From positions 1 through 40,875 of IMG/VR virus record IMGVR_UViG_2563366845_000003: a stretch of 40,875 nucleotides of DNA. The stretch is one strand, 5' to 3'. This DNA comes from a virus (Duplodnaviria > Heunggongvirae > Uroviricota > Caudoviricetes). Positions 7,729 to 40,875 of this stretch are shown here, in pieces (positions within the stretch are counted from its first letter, which is position 1; every line of letters starts with the position of its first letter). Both the position numbers and the translations under genes were made by a program. The notes below the pieces were generated by a model. That model saw only the letters and a program-made list of their open reading frames with translations, searched no databases and had not been told where the DNA came from.

Positions 7729-7754
7729 CAAAAATAAAGGCCGGCTATGCGGCC
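7729..7754 (-). terminator. Intrinsic terminator (tL-like) at the 3' end of the accessory gene
   Basis: Minus-strand GC-only 5 bp stem GGCCG-catagc-CGGCC followed by TTTATTTTTGG; overlaps the stop codon at 7745..7747. Confidence 0.55.
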
Positions 7755-8368
7755 TCGGAAGGAAGTCCAATCATCTTATTCAAATCTTCTACCCGTAAAG
7801 CAGGAAGTGCTGTACTTGCTTTATCTGCTTCTTTTGGTAGCAACTCTTTGCTTTCAGGCCAAACTTCAATAAGTCGCTTAACTGTTGTGACTGAGTTCAA
7901 AGCAGCCCATACATTTGATTTGATATCCTTTTTCTTGACTTCAAGTTTTTGTTGCAATGCGCAGATTTCATCAAACCTTTTTGTTATTTCGTGTTCTGCG
8001 TCAAACATGCATTTATCTTTTTCTGGGGTGGGGAGCAATATATCTTCACCGTTGCCGTCTTTTCCGTATGAATGCCAGCCAACTCTTCTGCCAGATACAG
8101 TCAGATAAATTGATGTAGAACGAACATCGTATGAGTAAAATGAACATCCCAGTTTTTTAAGTTCTTCACTTATAGCTACTAACTTGGATGATAACTGATC
8201 CACTTCCTCAGTTTTCTTTTTACCGCCAAACGCAATAACTCTGGCGTCAAGTGCAAGCTGGTTCTTTAACTTTGTTACTTCTTCAAGTTCAGTGAAAACC
8301 CCAGACTTAATTAAAGCGTTACGAGCGATTTCCTCTTTCATTCTCGTAGTTAAGCGGATTGATGACAT
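7745..8368 (-). CDS. Hypothetical accessory protein (207 aa, hydrophilic, Lys/Glu-rich, coiled-coil-like); function unknown
   Basis: ATG at 8366..8368 (MSSIRLTTRMKEEIARNALIKS) with GAGAGGAA Shine-Dalgarno; the track ORF begins upstream at a TTG; followed by its own terminator; occupies the lambda ral/sieB/ea10 position. Confidence 0.7.
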   Translation of the reverse strand: MSSIRLTTRMKEEIARNALIKSGVFTELEEVTKLKNQLALDARVIAFGGKKKTEEVDQLSSKLVAISEELKKLGCSFYSYDVRSTSIYLTVSGRRVGWHSYGKDGNGEDILLPTPEKDKCMFDAEHEITKRFDEICALQQKLEVKKKDIKSNVWAALNSVTTVKRLIEVWPESKELLPKEADKASTALPALRVEDLNKMIGLPSEAA

Positions 8369-8504
8369 ATTAATTCCTCTCAAATAAGTGGTTTGCTGCC
8401 TAATTTCATTTTCTGGCGACCAACACAAGTCACACCCATTTCACTGCGTGGCTTGCGGTAGTAAATAGGGTTATTTATGTCATTAAAAACCAGCATGAGC
8501 GTGG

Positions 8505-14913: not shown

Positions 14914-15089
14914 TGCTTAGCCCATCCCAATCCCTTCAATACCAGAAAGAAAGCGTCGAGCGAGCTTTAACGTGCGCTAACTGCGGTCAGAAGCTGCATG
15001 TGCTGGAAGTTCATGTGTGTGAGCACTGCTGCGCAGAACTGATGAGCGATCCGAATAGCTCAATGTACGAGGAAGAAGACGATGAGTGA
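14913..15089 (+). CDS. ninF: NinF
   Basis: 58 aa [50 protein letters not shown] matches lambda NinF; below the ORF-track cut-off. Confidence 0.85.
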   Translation: MLSPSQSLQYQKESVERALTCANCGQKLHVLEVHVCEHCCAELMSDPNSSMYEEEDDE

Positions 15090-15591
15090 TGTTAAAGAAA
15101 AAGATATCCCCGGCTTTGAGGGTATATATAAAGTAACTGAAAATGGAGACATCATTTCATGCCGTAAATCAAAAAAATTATCTCATGGTATTAAACCAGG
15201 AGGATATGCATTTGTCGGTCTGTATCCAGGTGGCGGGAAAAGACCATCATATAAAATGGTTCACAGAATTGTTGCAGAAGTATTTATTGATAACCCAGAT
15301 GGCAAACCGGAAGTTAATCACAAGGATGGAAATAAACTTAATAATAAAGTTGAAAATCTTGAGTGGGTAACGCGAACAGAAAATGCGAAACATGGATTTG
15401 ATTCCGGGTTGCTTGTTCATGGTTTTAATCATCACTTCTGCAAACTAACGCCAGAACAAGTGAAATCAATATATAAATCAAAAGGCAAATACAGAGATAT
15501 AGCCAAAGAATTTGGTGTTTGTGCGCAGACAGTGTGCAACATAAAAAACAAATCAGCGTACCGACGTTTTTTGGAGGGGATTGATGTTTAG
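15082..15591 (+). CDS. HNH homing endonuclease (NUMOD4-like N-terminus plus HNH_3-type nuclease domain)
   Basis: GFEGIYKVTENGDIIS N-terminal motif; HNH-type H/N residues (VNHKDGNKLNNKVENLEWVTRTEN); markedly AT-rich compared with neighbours. Confidence 0.75.
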   Translation: MSDVKEKDIPGFEGIYKVTENGDIISCRKSKKLSHGIKPGGYAFVGLYPGGGKRPSYKMVHRIVAEVFIDNPDGKPEVNHKDGNKLNNKVENLEWVTRTENAKHGFDSGLLVHGFNHHFCKLTPEQVKSIYKSKGKYRDIAKEFGVCAQTVCNIKNKSAYRRFLEGIDV

Positions 15592-17130: not shown

Positions 17131-17160
17131 AGCCCTGAGTTAATAGCTCGGGGCTTTTTG
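17131..17160 (+). terminator. Intrinsic terminator about 55 nt downstream of pR' (tR'-like, terminating a short 6S-like RNA)
   Basis: AGCCCTGAG-ttaatag-CTCGGGGCT followed by TTTTT; 9 bp stem with one G-U pair. Confidence 0.75.
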
Positions 17161-18798: not shown

Positions 18799-18972
18799 TA
18801 GCGATAATTTTACTCATCATCCTTCACATCTGGCTCTGCAGACAGGGTGGTGATCACTTCTGGAGTGAATCCAGATTAAACATCTCATTGCTGATGCTTG
18901 ATATTGAGCATCTGGCGCGCGGTAAGGGGCTGCGTTGAGATAAGAGCCAGTCATTACAAATACCAGGATTTA

Positions 18973-18996
18973 GCCTCGCATTCGCGGGGCTTTTTT
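18973..18996 (+). terminator. Intrinsic terminator downstream of the lysis cassette
   Basis: GCCTCGC-attc-GCGGGGC followed by TTTTTT. Confidence 0.65.
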
Positions 18997-19140
18997 ATAT
19001 CTGAATTTCACAGCGCATCTCACGCGCATATTAACGAGAGCCTTTCAGTAAGCGAGCCTGAGAAATGCCGTTATAGGTGGCGACCTCTCTCGGGCGGCTT
19101 TTCTGTGAGACAGGCTCACTTTCTAAAAGGTAAAGACGCT

Positions 19141-19659
19141 ATGAATCATCAATTGGCTAATCTCGATTTCCGGGACATGGTGGTTGTTTCTGGTGATCGC
19201 GTGATCACAACCTCCCGCAAGGTAGCAGCTTACTTCGACAAGCAGCATCACCACATCATTCAGAAAATCGAAAAGCTAGACTGTTCGGATGAATTTCTAA
19301 CCAGCAACTTTTCGCGGGTTACCTATGAACACAAGGGTAATCAGTATGTTGAATATGAAATTTCCAAAGACGGCGCGATGTACATCATCATGTCGTTTAC
19401 CGGCAAAAAAGCTGCCGCCATCAAAGAGGCGTTTATCAAAGCATTTAATTGGATGCGTGACAGGCTGATGGAGATGGCTCACTCATACCAAAGAGAGCAC
19501 AACGAGTTAATGCTGGAGTTCATGAAGGAAAAGGATGTTGCCAGTATGTCAGGACGCTTGCTGAACCGCTGGGGCAGGATCAAAAAACCGCAACTCATAG
19601 CAAGAATCGAAAGGCTTGAGCAGCAGGCGCAAATATCGATCCCCGGACTGCCAAAGTGA
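19141..19659 (+). CDS. rha: Rha-family phage regulatory protein
   Basis: 172 aa from ATG 19141 (MNHQLANLDFRDMVVVSGDRVITTSRKVAAYFDKQHHHIIQKIEKL ...); Rha N-terminal domain signature; the track ORF over-extends upstream. Confidence 0.7.
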   Translation: MNHQLANLDFRDMVVVSGDRVITTSRKVAAYFDKQHHHIIQKIEKLDCSDEFLTSNFSRVTYEHKGNQYVEYEISKDGAMYIIMSFTGKKAAAIKEAFIKAFNWMRDRLMEMAHSYQREHNELMLEFMKEKDVASMSGRLLNRWGRIKKPQLIARIERLEQQAQISIPGLPK

Positions 19660-31378: not shown

Positions 31379-34224
<2,846 letters not shown>

Positions 34225-34634
34225 CGTTCAGCACCGCGCTTGATTCTCTCAACGAGATAGAGCAAAGCCCCGGCCTTTCAAAAGCAGTAGGAATTCGCTC
34301 AGCGTTTCCGACAGTCCCTGGCTCTGATGCGGCTAACTTTGAAGCAAGGCTCGACACCTTTAAAGCTCAAACATTCCTTCCTATGGTGCAGTCCCTGAAG
34401 GGTATGGGCGCTCTTTCAGATGCTGAGGGTAAAAAATTATCCGATGCGGTTGGTGCCCTAAGCCCCAAAATGAGTGAAAAGGCTTTTCGTGACTCTATCG
34501 GAAAGATTAGAAATCAGCTTGAAAGCAAGTTGAGCACTGTTAAAAAACAGTTTGATTATCAGGAGCCAGTACAGAATACGCCAGCGCAACAACCTACTAC
34601 TGGCAGTAACTTTTCTTCACTATGGGGTGATTAA
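34225..34634 (+). pseudogene. Ejection protein gene (P22 gp20-like), 3' fragment downstream of the IS
   Basis: Continues the gp20 frame (…GAVDTF | STALDSLNEIEQ…) after the right target-site duplication copy; stop overlaps the gp16 start. Confidence 0.7.
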
Positions 34635-36643
34635 TGGCTAAAGCATGGAAAGATGTTATCGCCTCTCCACAGTATCAGGCGTTAGCACCAGAACAAAAAG
34701 CGCAGGCTCAGGAGCAATACTTCAATGAAGTCGTGGCCCCGCAAGCCGGAGAAAATGCAGAGCAGGCTAAGCAAGCTTTCTATGCTGCCTATCCATTGCC
34801 ATCTGTGCAGCCAGTGGATACACAGCAACCAGTAGCACAGCAACAACCACAGCAACAACCACAGCAAAGTGGATTTATGTCTGATCTTGGTGAAGCCGTG
34901 AAAGAAACTGGTCGCGGACTGGTGCAGGCTGGCGTGAACGTGGCAAACATACCTGCATCAGTTGCCGATGCTGTAACAAGCGCGGCGGCTTGGGCTGGCG
35001 GTAAACTCGGAATTGGCGATGGGACATATCACCCAGCGCCACGAGTAACAACGCAGGGATTAGAGCAGGACTTTGGCCTTCAGCAAGGCGCGCTGACTCC
35101 ACAAACTACAGAGGGCAGGGTATTTGCTGAGGCATTGCCTTACCTCACTCCTGCTGGCATTGAGAGAGCGGCAACACAGGCACCAACACTCGCTGGTAGA
35201 ATCGCTCAGGGTGCAACTCGCCTTCTCGCTGAAAACGCAGTCGGGTCACTTGCTGCAAATAGTGCGAAAGATGATGCGGAAGCCCTCGCCACCGATTTAG
35301 GTGTTGGCGTTCTGGCAGGCGGCGCTATTAACGCTGCTGGACGTGGATTAGGTGCTGCTTATCGTGGCGTTAGTGGTGCTATTGCGCCAGAAGCGCAGCA
35401 GGCTATCAGATTTGCAGAGCGTGAAGGAGTTCCTCTGCACACCACAGACCTGTTACAGCCTACTTCCCGCGTCGGGAAAATGGCGCAGACGACAGCGGAA
35501 AATATCCCCCTGGCTGGCACAAGCGGAATGAGAGCAACGCAACAGGAAGCGAGAAGCCAGTTGGTGCAGAGATTTGCTGATAAATTCGGTGAGTATGATC
35601 CAGCTGTTGTTATTGACAGCCTTAAAGCGAAAACATCAGGAATTCGTCGTGCTGCAGGGAACCGTCTTGAGCAGGTTCAGAATGCAATGGCGGGAGTCAA
35701 TATCCAGCCTGCGCGAGCAATTCAGCAGATTGATACTGAGATATCTAACCTGCAGAAGCTTGGTAAGGTTGCTGATAACGAGACTATTTCAAAACTTCAA
35801 TCATATCGTGATGAACTTGTTCGCAATGCTGGTCCTGATGGTCCGGTAAATCTGGATTTGAAGCAATTAAGCGACCTGCGCAGCCAGTTCAGAATGGACG
35901 TGAAAGGTGAGCGACCAGTGTTACCAAACCGTTCCGATGCTGCCATTCAGCGCGTTTACAAGGCAATGACCGACGATATCAATGGTGCCATTGGTCAGAA
36001 TCTTGGCAACGATACTCTCCGTAAATATCAGCAGGCCAATGCCGTCTACGCTGACGAAGCGGCGAAACTAAAGAATACCAGGCTGAAGAATGTTCTCATG
36101 AAAGGCGACCTGACGCCGGAAGTTGTCAACAACATGCTATTCAGCAAGAACAAATCGGAAATTAAGACTCTGTATAACTCAGTTGGTCGTGTTGGCAGGA
36201 CGCAAATGCGCAATGGCATCATTGGAAAGGCGATGGAGAAATCTGGCGGATCCCCTGACCAGTTCCTTCGGCAGCTTAACATCCTGCAAAACCAGACTGG
36301 CATCACATTTAAGGGGCAGGACGCTGCTTATCTGAAAGGATTAAAAAACTACCTGCAATCCACGCAGCAGGCTGCAAAAGCGGCAGTAACAACACCCACA
36401 GGGCAGCAAACTATCCCGTTCATAATTGGGTATGGGACGGCAATGAACCCGGCTACAACTGGCGCAGCAGTAAGCTACGGACTTCTTACTCGCGCCTATG
36501 AGAGCGAGCCATTCAGAAATGCAATGCTCCGAATGGCAAACACCCCACGCGGATCAACAGCGTTTGAGAAAGCCATGCAGCAGGCGCAAAAGGCCATTAA
36601 CGCCCTTACTCAGGGGGCTAAGTCTGATGCGTTGTCAGAATAG
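34634..36643 (+). CDS. Ejection / DNA transfer protein (P22 gp16-like)
   Basis: 669 aa in the gp16 position; contains a Gln/Pro-rich low-complexity tract (QQQPQQQPQQ). Confidence 0.75.
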   Translation: MAKAWKDVIASPQYQALAPEQKAQAQEQYFNEVVAPQAGENAEQAKQAFYAAYPLPSVQPVDTQQPVAQQQPQQQPQQSGFMSDLGEAVKETGRGLVQAGVNVANIPASVADAVTSAAAWAGGKLGIGDGTYHPAPRVTTQGLEQDFGLQQGALTPQTTEGRVFAEALPYLTPAGIERAATQAPTLAGRIAQGATRLLAENAVGSLAANSAKDDAEALATDLGVGVLAGGAINAAGRGLGAAYRGVSGAIAPEAQQAIRFAEREGVPLHTTDLLQPTSRVGKMAQTTAENIPLAGTSGMRATQQEARSQLVQRFADKFGEYDPAVVIDSLKAKTSGIRRAAGNRLEQVQNAMAGVNIQPARAIQQIDTEISNLQKLGKVADNETISKLQSYRDELVRNAGPDGPVNLDLKQLSDLRSQFRMDVKGERPVLPNRSDAAIQRVYKAMTDDINGAIGQNLGNDTLRKYQQANAVYADEAAKLKNTRLKNVLMKGDLTPEVVNNMLFSKNKSEIKTLYNSVGRVGRTQMRNGIIGKAMEKSGGSPDQFLRQLNILQNQTGITFKGQDAAYLKGLKNYLQSTQQAAKAAVTTPTGQQTIPFIIGYGTAMNPATTGAAVSYGLLTRAYESEPFRNAMLRMANTPRGSTAFEKAMQQAQKAINALTQGAKSDALSE

Positions 36644-36733
36644 CTTTTCAAACACCAGGAACGTGCAAAAACCAAATATGTAGAACGCGAGGTTTATCGT
36701 ATCCCTCTGCATAGGCGATACCTTTGCTGATTG

Positions 36734-37219
36734 TTATCTGATGTTACTGCTACTGTTGCATGTGACTGTATTTCCAAACCCTGAATTGCAGTTTGTGTAA
36801 GTGTCAACGCGTGTTGGGTAAGGTTGAGTTATAACAGGCTGGCGCGCTTTTTGCTCGATAGCTTGCATTGTGTTTACAGCCTGATAATTCAATAAAGCCT
36901 GCTGGAATGCTTGGCTTTGTGCTATTTGTTGGGCTTGTTCTTGGCTTTGTAATTGAACATAAAGATTCTGAAGCTCAAGTCTTGCCTGCGCGTCACTTAT
37001 CTTGCCATCATCGACACCTTGCCCGAGCATCTTCGCAGCAAGGACATATAACTTAGGTGTTGGTGCTGATGCCATGCGTGAGTCGCTCTTCACGCTAGCA
37101 TCAAGGCAATTAGCCATATCGCTAAGCTTTGGATAGCGTTGTTCGCAACTTGCCTGATAGTCGCTAACCTTTGCACACCCTGCCAGCAGAAGCGGGATAA
37201 TTAACAGTGATTTTTTCAT
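36734..37219 (-). CDS. Hypothetical lipoprotein (161 aa) with Gln-rich central region
   Basis: ATG at 37217..37219 with strong AAGGAGAG Shine-Dalgarno; signal peptide plus lipobox LLAGC; track ORF begins 10 codons upstream. Confidence 0.7.
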   Translation of the reverse strand: MKKSLLIIPLLLAGCAKVSDYQASCEQRYPKLSDMANCLDASVKSDSRMASAPTPKLYVLAAKMLGQGVDDGKISDAQARLELQNLYVQLQSQEQAQQIAQSQAFQQALLNYQAVNTMQAIEQKARQPVITQPYPTRVDTYTNCNSGFGNTVTCNSSSNIR

Positions 37220-37353
37220 ATGATTAACTCTCCTTATCTTTGCCATCATGGCACTGTTGGGTGTAAATGAGTTATTAACTCAATCGACAATATCTTCACG
37301 AAAATACTTTTTATTATTAAGATCTTTCTGATTCTAACAAAACGGAAAGTAAT

Positions 37354-37773
37354 ATGAAGAGGATTATCGGCGTCGTTGCTGGCGCTATATTGTTATCTGG
37401 GTGCGCAACTATTGTTGGTGACGAAACACAGCTTGTGCAAGTGAACAGCAATCCTTCCGGTGCGAGCTTTAAGGTAAAAGACGAATCCGGCGTGATTGTT
37501 GCGCAAGGTAAGACTCCGCAAGGAGTAACTCTTGCCAAGTCAGATGGTAGTTATTTTGGCAAAAAGAGCTACCATATCACTATGGAAAAGGATGGGTACG
37601 AACCAGTTACCCTGCCAATCAAAGCCAATGCTAATGGTTGGTATATTGGTGGAAACCTTGTGTTTGGTGGGTTAATTGGTTGGCTTGCTGTAGATCCTTT
37701 TAATGGTGGGATGTATACCTTGAAGCCAAAAGAGGCAAACGCATCTCTTATACCATCAACAAAGCAAGACTAA
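37354..37773 (+). CDS. Hypothetical lipoprotein (139 aa), PEGA-like beta-rich domain
   Basis: Signal peptide with lipobox LLSGC; Gly-rich C-terminal segment; followed by a terminator. Confidence 0.7.
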   Translation: MKRIIGVVAGAILLSGCATIVGDETQLVQVNSNPSGASFKVKDESGVIVAQGKTPQGVTLAKSDGSYFGKKSYHITMEKDGYEPVTLPIKANANGWYIGGNLVFGGLIGWLAVDPFNGGMYTLKPKEANASLIPSTKQD

Positions 37774-37782
37774 TAAATAGGA

Positions 37783-37804
37783 CCCACCTTCAGGTGGGTT
37801 TTTT
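37783..37804. terminator. Bidirectional intrinsic terminator between the convergent lipoprotein and mnt genes
   Basis: CCCACC-ttca-GGTGGG followed by TTTTTT on the plus strand; overlaps the mnt stop codon. Confidence 0.7.
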
Positions 37805-38041
37805 GTACAAATCCTTCAGCGTATCAAACACCATCTTCTTAACAAGTTCAGACTGCTCATCAGCGATGCGTTCCGCATCGTCTCGATAGCCTGAAATTTT
37901 GGATGGCTTTGATACAGCATCAGTCACTATCTGAACTAATTCTGAATTAAGAGAGCGGCCATTGGATTTGGCTCGCTGTTTTAGTTTTTCCTTTAATTCG
38001 TAAGGTAGCCGCAGATTAAATTGCGGGTCATCTCTTCCCAT
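37790..38041 (-). CDS. mnt: Mnt repressor (P22 immI ribbon-helix-helix repressor)
   Basis: 83 aa MGRDDPQFNLRLPYELKEKLKQRAKSNGRSLNSELVQIVTDAVSKPS ... ERIADEQSELVKKMVFDTLKDLYKKPT closely matches P22 Mnt as recalled. Confidence 0.85.
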   Translation of the reverse strand: MGRDDPQFNLRLPYELKEKLKQRAKSNGRSLNSELVQIVTDAVSKPSKISGYRDDAERIADEQSELVKKMVFDTLKDLYKKPT

Positions 38042-38104
38042 TCTTGATGCCTCGCTTTTGTGAGTGGATCGGCATCTTATTATCTGCTGGTTGCATCCTC
38101 AATA

Positions 38105-38119
38105 AGACCACAGTGGTCT
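38105..38119. promoter_or_regulatory. Candidate Mnt operator: perfect palindrome AGACCAC-A-GTGGTCT
   Basis: 15 bp palindrome between divergent mnt and tailspike; resembles the P22 Omnt half-site (GGTCCAC); flanked by a second inverted repeat GATGCC-N19-GGCATC. Confidence 0.55.
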
Positions 38120-38187
38120 CTTTGTTTGATTAATAATGCATCACTGTGGCAATGCTGCGGCGATTCCTTGTATCTGGAGCAAATTAA

Positions 38188-40875
38188 ATGACAGACATTA
38201 CAGCCAATGTTGTAGTGAGTATGCCTTCGCAACTCTTCACTATGGCTCGTTCTTTTAAAGCCGTAGCCAATGGCAAAATTTATATCGGTAAAATTGACAC
38301 TGACCCGGTAAATCCTGAAAACCAGATTCAGGTTTATGTGGAGAATGAGGATGGTTCTCACGCTCCTGTATCGCAACCAATCATCATTAACGCTGCTGGT
38401 TACCCGGTATATAACGGACAGATTGCCAAATTCGTTACCGTGCAAGGCCATTCTATGGCTGTTTATGATGCGTATGGTGCGCAGCAGTTCTATTTTCCTA
38501 ATGTGCTGAAGTATGACCCTGATCAGTCATTGAAATATGTAGAAGGGGCATTGCTTGTTACTGACTTAGGTAATGGGACGTTTAAGAATAGTAGAAAAGA
38601 CGTTGCCATTGGGGATAATCTAACAGGAACCAATTTTATTAGAATAAACGGCGGCGTCTATAAATGCACTCCAGTTGCAACTGGAATTGTTACTGAGATC
38701 AAACATAGATACATTATCGCAGGCGGGGTTAAAAGCTACCTGTCTCATATTTCTAGGCATGTCAGTGGTACGCGTAGGCCGCTGAACTGGAAATTAGAAT
38801 TCAGCATCATAGACGATGAGATTACCGCAGATCTTAAAGATCAGTATGGTTACACGACCATGGGATTTCAGGGGATTTACATAGACAGCAATGATGGAAT
38901 GGTATACATCGGCTGGCAGACGCTAGACCCCGCATCGGTATGGGTTACGGTGCATGACTGGATAACAGGAGCATTGGTAACACGTCTTCATTTTCCGAAT
39001 AACGTTGGTGCACCAGAAGGCATCCACGTTTACCGAGTGGCAGGACAGCGTTACATCCTGCTGCCGTACAGCCCATCTCGCACTATCAGAATTTACCCTA
39101 TCGAAGATCCGCGTACGCTGGTTGATAAAACGCAGATTACAAACTTCACTGAATCAACACCCCTTGGAGTGCGATATCAGTTTAGTGGCTTTGGTAATAC
39201 CCTGATATACGAAAATGCGGATATGGGTTGGCCGAAAATTTTTGATGTTGAGACAGGTGTATCCAATATCTTTAACACACTGGATATTAACAGCCTTATA
39301 GAAGGATCTTACAGTCCAATGGGGACTATTACGGTTGATGCAAATGTTGGAGGTCGCGGAGCCGGTAAACCAAAACGGCAGGGTGTCGCTCTTGGTTCTC
39401 AACGGATATTTGCTGGTATTGGTGCATCTACCACGGCGGGATCTGGAAATACTTTCGCAGGGTTGCAGGGTTATATTGAGTACAGCCTTAATGGTTCAGA
39501 ATTAGGTCAGTACCTGCTGTCACCTGCAGATTTCAAAACATACTGGGATAGTTATTCAGGGAAGAGTGTTTACTCCACTGAAAATGAGGGGGTGCAGTCT
39601 TGTGATATTTCTGGCTCTGAGGAATTGTATCTTCTACAGTCTATTCGCTATGACAATGGGGGCGGATCAAATTATAGGACTTTAAACATCATTCGCGCTA
39701 ACTGTCCATCTAATGAACCTGGAACAGTAGACATGACTCCGCTATCCAATGCCTCATCACAGTTATTTAACCCTCGCGGAAGGGTGATTAACGCTGGCCG
39801 TCACCCTGTAAACCCGGCTGATGGTATTGCGCTATTTACATCGGCACAGGCTATTTGTGACTATTTGCGGAATACAGATGCAGGTAGATATGTGACATAT
39901 CTTGAACAGGATATGCCACTGTTTGAAGGTGGGCCATCTGCGCCAGGACAGATGACGCTGCCAGCATTCTGCCTATTGCAGATCGACTTCATCAACGGCG
40001 ATACCTGGGAAATTACAGTTAATGGAACTAACAGGGCTAATAATTATACAGGAAGGATTTCCAAAAACGGCGGGTACAACTCTTTTACTAAGGTGTCCTC
40101 CCGCAGCATGTCGATTCTCGGATCCCCTGGTCTGGTTGATGTATCAATTCGCTCACCTAACTCACTAAATCTTCCAGAATTTGCTGGAGACTGGTCTACT
40201 GGTGTAAGTGTAGGAGCTGCAGGTGGGGTGACAAACTGGCAGCCAGAAGGAACAGGTAACGGAGCATTATGGGAGTCAGGATATGCAAAAAACCGTGTGT
40301 TGCAGATATTCATGTCCACAACATCAAAACTGTTCTTCCGCTACGCAGACGATGCTATTCGCGCAGGTAACACAGGCTGGGCTGAGGCATGGTCGTCGCT
40401 GAACACGACCGTCGATTCAAGTGGTTTCATCAAAAAAGCCTCTCCGGTTGTGAAGATTTTCTCAGACGGTAGTAGTGAAACAAATCGCGAATCAGATGGG
40501 GTAACCGTCACACGGCTGGCATTGGGTGAATATCTGATTGAGGGTTGCGTAGGTCTGAATGCAGATGCTTCATGGGGGGGGATTGATGGTGGATTTGAAA
40601 TACCGCAGGACCGAAACAAGCAGCCGCTCATCTGGCTGGATTATGTTGTTAACCAAGATGGATCTGTGTTGGTGAAAACGTTTCACCGCACTCATGATAA
40701 CTCGCCCGTTTTTGCACGTAACGACATCCCTGGTGTTTCGAACGGTGACCCGATCGACATTCCTGCTAATCAATTCGTTTCTGTGCGAGTACAGATGCCT
40801 GAGGATTCTGCATGGAATAAGCTTAAGGAACAACTAAATAAGGCTGAATTGATAGAAGATGATGTTGTGGAATAG
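38188..40875 (+). CDS. Tailspike protein: P22 gp9-like N-terminal head-binding domain fused to a different receptor-binding domain
   Basis: First ~110 aa ([60 protein letters not shown] ... NVLKYDPDQ) match the P22 tailspike head-binding domain; the rest does not resemble the P22 endorhamnosidase domain; GGAG Shine-Dalgarno; stop codon is the last three bases of the window. Confidence 0.85.

Follow-up and report, generated by a model that had tools for sequence, protein, structure and literature searches.

We analyzed the 40,875-bp IMG/VR record IMGVR_UViG_2563366845_000003 (hereafter the window), a complete P22-like (Lederbergvirus-type) prophage of Escherichia coli. From left to right it carries the integrase and excisionase, early genes, a C2-type repressor, the Q antiterminator and lysis genes, followed by rha, the head and tail genes, the ejection genes and the tailspike. 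Our subject is the interval between the last ejection gene, a homologue of P22 gene 16, and the tailspike gene, the counterpart of P22 gene 9. There, the window has two divergent genes for predicted lipoproteins, here called Lp1 and Lp2, and the repressor gene mnt. We interpret this cassette, with moderate confidence, as a recurrent form of the so-called ant moron, composed of two independently transcribed, prophage-expressed genes for outer-membrane lipoproteins and an orphan Mnt with its cognate operator. The region is organized as follows (lengths of proteins in amino acids, aa).

34634..36643, plus strand: gp16-type DNA-ejection protein, last late gene before the accessory region (phrog_770, 'DNA transfer protein', 1.4e-239)
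36734..37219, minus strand: Lp1, predicted lipoprotein of the outer membrane, 161 aa; fills the sieA slot and runs antisense to the late operon (lipobox, phrog_6067)
37220..37353: divergent spacer between Lp1 and Lp2, 134 bp, AT-rich (31% GC), expected to hold both promoters
37354..37773, plus strand: Lp2, 139-aa predicted outer-membrane lipoprotein (transthyretin/PEGA-like beta-sandwich and a conserved Gly-rich hydrophobic segment)
37782..37799: hairpin ACCCACC-TTCA-GGTGGGT between the convergent Lp2 and mnt genes, with a T-run on the plus strand (GGTGGGTTTTTTGT)
37790..38041, minus strand: mnt, 83-aa Mnt-type ribbon-helix-helix repressor with the N-terminal allele MGRDDPQFNLRLPY (Q6/L9)
38074..38102, minus strand: candidate mnt promoter (Pmnt) TTGAGG-17-TAAGAT, read from aligned sequences
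38105..38119: candidate Mnt operator AGACCAC-A-GTGGTCT, a palindrome found once in the window
38188..40875, plus strand: tailspike, 895 aa, P22-type head-binding domain followed by a different receptor-binding body

Both Lp1 and Lp2 have the signals of lipoproteins processed by signal peptidase II, namely a basic n-region, a hydrophobic h-region and a lipobox. The N-terminus of Lp1 is MKKSLLIIPLLLAGC followed by AK, with the lipobox LLAGC and the modified cysteine at position 15; that of Lp2 is MKRIIGVVAGAILLSGC followed by AT. The lipobox cysteine is invariant in 39 homologues of Lp1, which has four further conserved cysteines, and in 41 homologues of Lp2, and four relatives of Lp2 match LPAM_1. 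Both proteins have alanine at position +2. In E. coli, alanine rather than aspartate at this position directs a lipoprotein to the outer membrane by the Lol pathway, and the sequences of Lp1 and Lp2 predict such sorting.

A preliminary description of the window, made from the sequence alone, had proposed a divergent pair of lipoprotein genes with clear lipoboxes. The pair and the lipoboxes stand, with one correction to the coordinates of Lp1. The open reading frame (ORF) spans 36734-37249 on the minus strand, while the real start is the ATG at 37219 (M11), preceded by AAGGAG at a distance of 8 nt. In the alignment to the PHROG profile, residues 11-171 of the full ORF match positions 1-161 of 161, and the homologues in VSe13 and RefSeq are annotated with 161 aa. 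The GC content of the lipoprotein genes is 44-45%, compared with 51% for gene 16. The ratios of nonsynonymous to synonymous substitution rates (dN/dS) are 0.04 for Lp1 (against VSe13), 0.05 for Lp2 (against epsilon34), and 0.10 for mnt (against ST160); therefore, all three are real genes under purifying selection. The hairpin at 37782-37799 is likely a bidirectional intrinsic terminator, and a rho-independent terminator is annotated at the corresponding position of epsilon34.

Lp1 belongs to phrog_6067 (9.8e-110), a family with no assigned function. Neither Lp1 nor Lp2 gave a match above the cut-off in Pfam, NCBIfam, PADLOC or PDB sequences. The structure model of Lp1 is a soluble domain without transmembrane helices, consisting of a helical bundle at residues 18-100 and a Q-rich helix. 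We found 94 homologues, all from Enterobacterales; five phage records carry Lp1. In all contexts examined (E. coli, Salmonella, Serratia, Yersinia, and Morganella), Lp1 is flanked by a gp16 homologue and a Head_binding tailspike gene and runs opposite to the late operon. Moreover, in three contigs Lp1 occupies the sieA position on an otherwise P22-type backbone, in which the slot is followed by orf59a and mnt, and in one contig sieA is in the Lp1 slot beside a mnt gene 100% identical to that of the window. Lp1 is thus restricted to P22-like prophages and to the gap between genes 16 and 9, where it replaces sieA in some relatives; the assignment of a lipoprotein gene to the sieA position, made in the preliminary description, holds for both slot and orientation. 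In a Yersinia prophage and in contig L134, Lp1 is downstream of mnt by 15 and 5 nt, respectively, and the two genes look like an operon.

By contrast, Lp2 is distributed broadly. It has 727 close homologues, and an exhaustive search yielded 5,299 representative clusters at E ≤ 0.001, mostly of non-phage origin, with some relatives in Betaproteobacteria. Homologues with ∼65-80% identity occur as morons in siphoviruses of E. coli and Proteus, between the tail chaperone and tape-measure genes; a Pseudescherichia prophage has one before gene J, and in Enterobacter one is found in a non-phage chromosomal context. Lp2 is a mobile member of a very large family of bacterial envelope lipoproteins, and the breadth of this family argues for a general role in the envelope rather than masking of a single receptor. 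The model of Lp2 contains a confident transthyretin/PEGA-like sandwich at residues 25-93, followed by an invariant, poorly modelled segment GWYIGGN..FGGLIGW..VDPFNGGMY. In a distant relative, protein P0238, the Lp2-like domain is fused to an OmpA-like transmembrane beta-barrel, which fits an outer-membrane location for the Lp2 family.

Both genes have the properties of morons: their presence varies among related loci (80 IMG/VR loci with Lp2 and 46 Mnt-linked loci obtained by scanning for the operator), a terminator follows Lp2, the GC content is low, and both are expressed from a repressed prophage (see below). Similar to Lp1 and Lp2, Cor of phi80, N15 and HK022, Llp of T5, and Bor of lambda are small lipoproteins, with sorting to the outer membrane predicted, encoded by independently expressed morons in or beside tail genes, and Lp2 homologues are found in siphovirus tail modules, as cor is. 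However, no relationship in sequence or fold links Lp1 or Lp2 to Cor, Llp or Bor. Lp2 matches Cor (NCBIfam NF047972 and phrog_1119) only in the signal peptide, residues 1-20 or 1-30, with E-values of 0.0035 and 0.19 and a score of 11.7 bits against a cut-off of 31 bits.

Candidate promoters in the region were picked by eye and by a consensus scan. Two promoter-like sites are present on the minus strand of the Lp1/Lp2 spacer, TTGTTA-16-AATAAT (37340-37313) and TTCATA-16-TAGAAT (37358-37331). The same spacer contains a second perfect 15-bp palindrome, TGAGTTATTAACTCA, at 37268-37282, with a two-mismatch copy at 17136-17150, ∼110 bp downstream of the Q antiterminator gene. This palindrome may be the operator of some other regulator; its conservation is uninformative, as the spacer is nearly invariant in 15 related loci. 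Boxes for PhoP, CpxR and RcsB, looked for in the spacer by eye using consensus sequences, were represented by weak matches, from which we make no claim.

The layout itself is not new. Escherichia phage Gally (OV696608), a prophage of adherent-invasive E. coli (AIEC) LF82, is 99.8% identical to the window at the nucleotide level over 36600-38300. Gally is the most active prophage of this Crohn's-associated strain. Its genes GALLYPH_13-16 correspond to the four genes of the window in order and orientation, and the operator and terminator are shared as well. Unlike the window, it carries another tailspike body (799 aa, compared with 895), other head and early modules, and no IS100 in the gene-20 homologue. 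In the Gally annotation, both lipoproteins are 'hypothetical' and Lp1 starts ten codons too early. The layout is also present in vB_EcoP-720R6, in at least 24 of 5,426 complete E. coli genomes, and in 15 IMG/VR contigs. The interval between genes 16 and 9 was named 'ant moron' and divided into ten types in sixteen genomes, with mnt-only ant morons in ST64T, ST104 and Para1 (Villafane et al., 2008), and the orphan mnt of phage L was considered re-purposed or a remnant in the paper describing that phage. In our census, Lp2 and mnt form a linked pair, which occurs with arc and ant in ∼32 loci, with Lp1 and neither arc nor ant in 15, and alone in 13.

Comparison with P22 reveals a common frame. 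In both, mnt occupies the same slot and points away from gene 9, a dyad operator directly adjoins the -35 hexamer of Pmnt, the first gene after gene 16 is antisense to the late operon, and the leader and ribosome-binding site of gene 9 are conserved. The window differs in that it lacks sieA, orf59a, arc, sar, and ant, has the operator half-site AGACCAC instead of GGTCCAC, and has gained the two lipoprotein genes. The preliminary description had reported mnt without arc and ant, and this is borne out: in tblastn searches with P22 Arc, Ant and SieA over the whole 40.9-kb window, the only match was mnt itself, so arc and ant are not located elsewhere in the prophage. Rfam reports nothing for sar at the gathering threshold in the window, the presence of a sar family in the library not having been checked.

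Phages L, ST64T, ST104, ST160 and SE1 carry mnt-only ant morons. Like the window, they have an orphan mnt (Q6) directly before gene 9, the operator TAAGACCAC-N-GTGGTCTTA and a homologous spacer, which is 13 bp shorter; the nucleotide identity is ∼82%. Instead of Lp1 and Lp2, they carry a small unrelated ORF (orf62/orf64). Genes 15-19 of Salmonella phage epsilon34 are also related: gene 15 is Lp2 (97% identical), followed by the same terminator and the same 3' half of mnt, while the N-terminus of Mnt is of the P22 type, as are the operator, arc, sar, and ant, and hkcB replaces Lp1. The homology with epsilon34 (locus L002) includes Lp2 and the terminator as well as the 3' half of mnt, which encodes the tetramerisation part, and stops near 37888 inside mnt. 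It appears that the DNA-binding half of mnt, the operator and arc/ant have been exchanged as one unit, with the recombination joint within mnt. The region had initially been presented as a remodelled immI-like region, which suggests something unusual; rather, its layout is a known recurrent mosaic of a hypervariable region, one of many standard ant morons, already deposited as phage Gally. The uncharacterised part is its cargo: two conserved lipoproteins that the prophage expresses, and an orphan Mnt whose operator matches it.

To follow expression, we used the RNA-seq data published for the Gally lysogen LF82 (PMC9928086, tables S1 and S4; values are log2(fpkm+5), where fpkm is fragments per kilobase per million); samples B1 and B6 are presumably bacteria in cell-culture medium without macrophages. 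Lp1 is at ∼6.1 in stationary lysogeny broth (LB), ∼8 in B1/B6, and 10.3 and 8.6 at 1 h and 6 h in macrophages. In the same order, the values are ∼5.5, ∼10.2, 11.0 and 9.4 for Lp2; ∼3.7, 5.7-7.1, ∼9.0 and 8.4 for mnt; and ∼3.9, 4.8-5.7, 6.7 and 7.8 for the tailspike. The three injection genes just upstream remain at 3.4-4.1, 2.5-3.7, 2.3-4.0 and 2.5-4.2. The transcripts of Lp1 and Lp2 thus exceed those of the adjacent late genes up to ∼100-fold. Since both genes are transcribed while the late genes are silent, their transcription is independent of the late operon, and a role in the virion or in lysis, which had been named as a possible objection to the first reading, is excluded. As a separate observation, in macrophages the induction of GALLYPH_13, 14, 15 and 17 is 6- to 40-fold with the late genes off, and the published statement that Gally is moron-free holds for the stationary-LB data set only. 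The idea that st313-td of BTP1, a gene linked to macrophages, might occupy this slot as a homologue of the lipoproteins proved wrong, as st313-td is bstA and is located downstream of cI.

The Mnt protein of the window (83 aa) is 76% identical to P22 Mnt, with the substitutions H6Q, F9L and M11L, and matches Pfam PF03869 Arc (2.8e-22, residues 3-50) and PF11423 Repressor_Mnt (2.2e-18, residues 53-80). The palindrome AGACCACAGTGGTCT (38105-38119) lies in the 146-bp spacer that separates mnt from the tailspike gene, at a distance of 68 bp from the tailspike ATG (38188). A perfect 7+1+7 palindrome is expected 0.009 times in this spacer; the whole window has six, compared with 2.7 in shuffled sequences, and for this reason the palindrome alone is weak evidence. 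Conservation adds to it: the arms are kept beside mnt in ∼70 related loci (29 loci in one survey, 46 in another), while the central base is A, T, C or G, and the distance of 68 bp to the tailspike ATG is the same in 29 of 29 and 42 of 42 loci of the window type. Hence, the perfect palindromic operator that had been noticed beside mnt, immediately upstream of the tailspike gene, is retained as a candidate Mnt operator. Its sequence is unique in the window, with none near the lipoprotein genes; the one other match has three mismatches and is at chance level.

The N-terminal allele of Mnt and the operator half-site covary in the sequences compared. The allele MARDDPHFNFRM (H6/F9) is paired with GGTCCAC-N-GTGGACC in 31 loci, where arc is always the next gene, and the allele MGRDDPQFNLRL (Q6/L9) with (A)GACCAC-N-GTGGTC(T) in 29 loci, where the tailspike gene is always next. 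In a separate lineage, MARDDPQFNLRM (Q6, L9) is associated with the operator AGACCACGGTGGTCT, a consensus TTGACA in the ant promoter (Pant), arc, two antirepressor genes, and a siphovirus tail module. As the pairing of Q6/L9 with AGACCAC recurs in this lineage, residues 6 and 9 of Mnt appear to read the half-site. Separately, in three IMG/VR contigs (L161, L172, L108) a complete cassette of mnt(Q6), operator, arc, ant and ant2 sits in a siphovirus, with the major tail gene on one side and the tape-measure gene on the other, so that immI-like cassettes are mobile morons beyond P22-like phages.

In the aligned spacers, Pmnt of P22 (TTGAGA-17-TATCAT) corresponds to TTGAGG-17-TAAGAT in the window, with the operator 2 bp from the -35 hexamer. 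This candidate is not in the list of the consensus scan because it matches at 8 of 12 positions, just below the threshold. The Pant hexamers of P22, TTGACA and TATATT, read TCGGCA (38069-38074) and TGCATC (38092-38097) on the plus strand of the window. Thus, in the alignment with the P22 immI region the frame formed by Pmnt and the operator is retained, whereas the Pant hexamers are degenerate. An inverted repeat, GATGCC-N19-GGCATC, is located at 38046-38076, between the mnt start codon and the candidate Pmnt -10 hexamer, and is kept even in divergent Arc-family variants with another operator (VSe13, L079).

Given these data, the cassette could work as follows. Lp1, anchored in the outer membrane and acting in the periplasm, would exclude superinfecting P22-like phages, possibly by interfering with the needle or the ejection proteins as they cross the envelope, in the way SieA acts at the inner membrane. 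Exclusion determinants often sit in the gap between genes 16 and 9, SieA of P22 and the antisense RNA STnc6030 of BTP1 being the examples. It is this position and analogy that favour exclusion for Lp1, which makes superinfection exclusion of P22-like phages by Lp1 plausible. With SieA, Lp1 shares the location between genes 16 and 9, the orientation antisense to the late operon and expression from the prophage, as seen in the Gally lysogen. It shows no homology to SieA of type A, as P22 SieA has no tblastn match in the window, and in contrast to the polytopic inner-membrane protein SieA, Lp1 has a cleavable lipoprotein signal. For Lp2, exclusion is less reasonable than for Lp1, given that its family is huge, mostly non-phage and present in unrelated phage types; Lp2 may alter the envelope more generally, affecting stress or host-niche fitness, or blocking phage entry broadly.

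Mnt, in turn, would bind AGACCAC-N-GTGGTCT adjoining the -35 hexamer of its own promoter. Its control of an antirepressor through Pant does not extend to this prophage: since ant is absent along with arc, and the Pant hexamers are degenerate, Mnt regulates no antirepressor in cis. It could be retained as a repressor in trans of the Pant-arc-ant cassettes of incoming phages with the same operator type. As antirepressor cassettes with this type of operator exist in other phages, such a protective role of an orphan Mnt is plausible. Alternatively, Mnt may reduce the transcription that runs on from Lp2 or the late operon into the tailspike gene. A bolder proposal, that Lp1 founds a new class of outer-membrane exclusion lipoproteins specific to P22-like podoviruses and alternative to SieA, that Mnt(Q6) provides trans 'immunity without antirepressor' against incoming phages, siphoviruses included, and that the cassette is switched on in host niches, seems doubtful to us.

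Several observations weigh against this interpretation. Fold and profile searches of both lipoproteins gave generic matches only. No phenotype for Lp1 or Lp2 is reported in the literature, and their accessions and locus tags appear in no paper. The promoters of the accessory region are candidates that come from inspection and the consensus scan. The presence of Lp2 in siphoviruses and Enterobacter chromosomes is contrary to receptor-specific exclusion. The authors of the Gally study class this phage as moron-free in LB, with Lp1 at 4.5 times and Lp2 at 3.3 times the background and a cut-off of 5 times (PMC9928086); this classification results from applying the cut-off to LB only. Deletion of mnt left the survival of LF82 in macrophages unchanged (PMC9928086). 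Finally, the mnt and tailspike RNAs rise together in macrophages, contrary to simple repression of the tailspike gene by Mnt.

A possible, although less probable, explanation of the lipoproteins is that both are host-fitness factors of lysogenic conversion that would remodel or protect the envelope in host-associated niches, like Bor and Lom of lambda, and have no role in phage entry. In AIEC LF82, both genes are induced 6- to 15-fold in macrophages (sample MB6 versus LB), their level in culture medium being high already, and the ∼5,300 clusters of the Lp2 family, mostly non-phage and including the Enterobacter chromosomal copy and the OmpA fusion, as well as the occurrence of Lp2 as a moron in unrelated phage types, point in the same direction. 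Yet the confinement of Lp1 to P22-like prophages, and there to the sieA slot, would not be expected of a general fitness gene. Moreover, no virulence phenotype has been reported for either protein, and the contrast between stationary LB and Dulbecco's modified Eagle medium (DMEM) or macrophages may reflect the growth state rather than the host niche.

Regarding mnt, it is unlikely that the repressor is re-used to control the tailspike, with promoter control or a roadblock at 38105-38119 setting transcription into gene 9. This idea, part of an earlier suggestion that Mnt had been rewired to the tailspike or the lipoproteins, is consistent with the constant position of the operator before the tailspike gene, with purifying selection on the orphan mnt, and with the high transcription of Lp2 on the same strand, so that leakage past the terminator would extend into the tailspike gene; a tuning of tailspike levels by the ant moron of P22 has also been suggested in the literature. 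The data do not support the idea, however. At the scan threshold the spacer has no sigma-70-like promoter toward the tailspike gene, Pant is degenerate, and the single operator is not near the lipoprotein genes, while the joint rise of the mnt and tailspike RNAs in Gally is again at odds with it. Q-modified transcription of the late genes is expected to pass small roadblocks. Candidates facing the tailspike gene that had been picked by eye (TTGATT..., AATAAT) were rejected, as they have no partner hexamer and are absent from the ST160-type spacer.

It is very unlikely that orphan mnt and its operator are a decaying, now functionless remnant of a full immI, as the degenerate Pant hexamers and the lack of a macrophage phenotype upon mnt deletion could suggest, because the mnt ORF is intact in every locus examined, its dN/dS between the E. 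coli and Salmonella versions is low, the operator keeps its arms but not its central base, the residues that contact DNA covary with the half-site, and mnt is induced 40-fold in macrophages.

The gap between genes 16 and 9 has long been recognized as a hotspot (sieA, immI, the BTP1 antisense RNA), and knowledge of its cargo helps to read thousands of E. coli and Salmonella prophages. The conserved but unnamed families phrog_6067 and phrog_6823 can now be regarded as lipoproteins that prophages express and that are predicted to reach the outer membrane; one of the two is tied to the sieA slot. Both lipoprotein genes rank with the most strongly induced genes of Gally when its Crohn's-associated host strain is in macrophages, which sets the range of the 'no morons' statement. 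The pairing of Mnt residues 6 and 9 with the half-site is a natural specificity code for a classic model repressor and offers a testable reason for the persistence of orphan mnt. The general picture of phage mosaicism is unchanged by these findings.

Of the flanking genes, the gp16-type protein is 33% identical to P22 gp16. The tailspike has the Pfam domains Head_binding (1e-66) and Phage_tail_C_2 (2.1e-59) and a tail-fibre-like domain, PF25670, at the C-terminus, and the ∼45 bp before its ATG are conserved with the leader of P22 gene 9. It is 93% identical to the Gally tailspike over residues 1-119, where the tblastn alignment ends, placing the swap point near 38527-38544. Elsewhere in the window, Rfam and tRNA scans were empty, and a Rha-type regulator is encoded at 18898-19659, the location where P22 too has rha.

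A copy of IS100 (IS21 family, istA/istB; 1,954 bp) is located at 32271-34224, with 28-nt terminal inverted repeats and a CGTTCA target duplication. It splits the homologue of gene 20, which encodes an ejection protein, into 31379-32290 and 34197-34634, and is absent from the closest complete E. coli genomes, SCU-109 and ECamp083 (99.2% identical). As this insertion interrupts the gene-20 homologue, the prophage of the window is probably unable to form infectious particles. In addition, the early-left region encodes a protein with an Nmad5 (nucleotide-modification-associated) domain (7745-8428, minus strand), and the nin region contains an HNH/NUMOD4 homing-endonuclease-like gene (15082-15591, plus strand).

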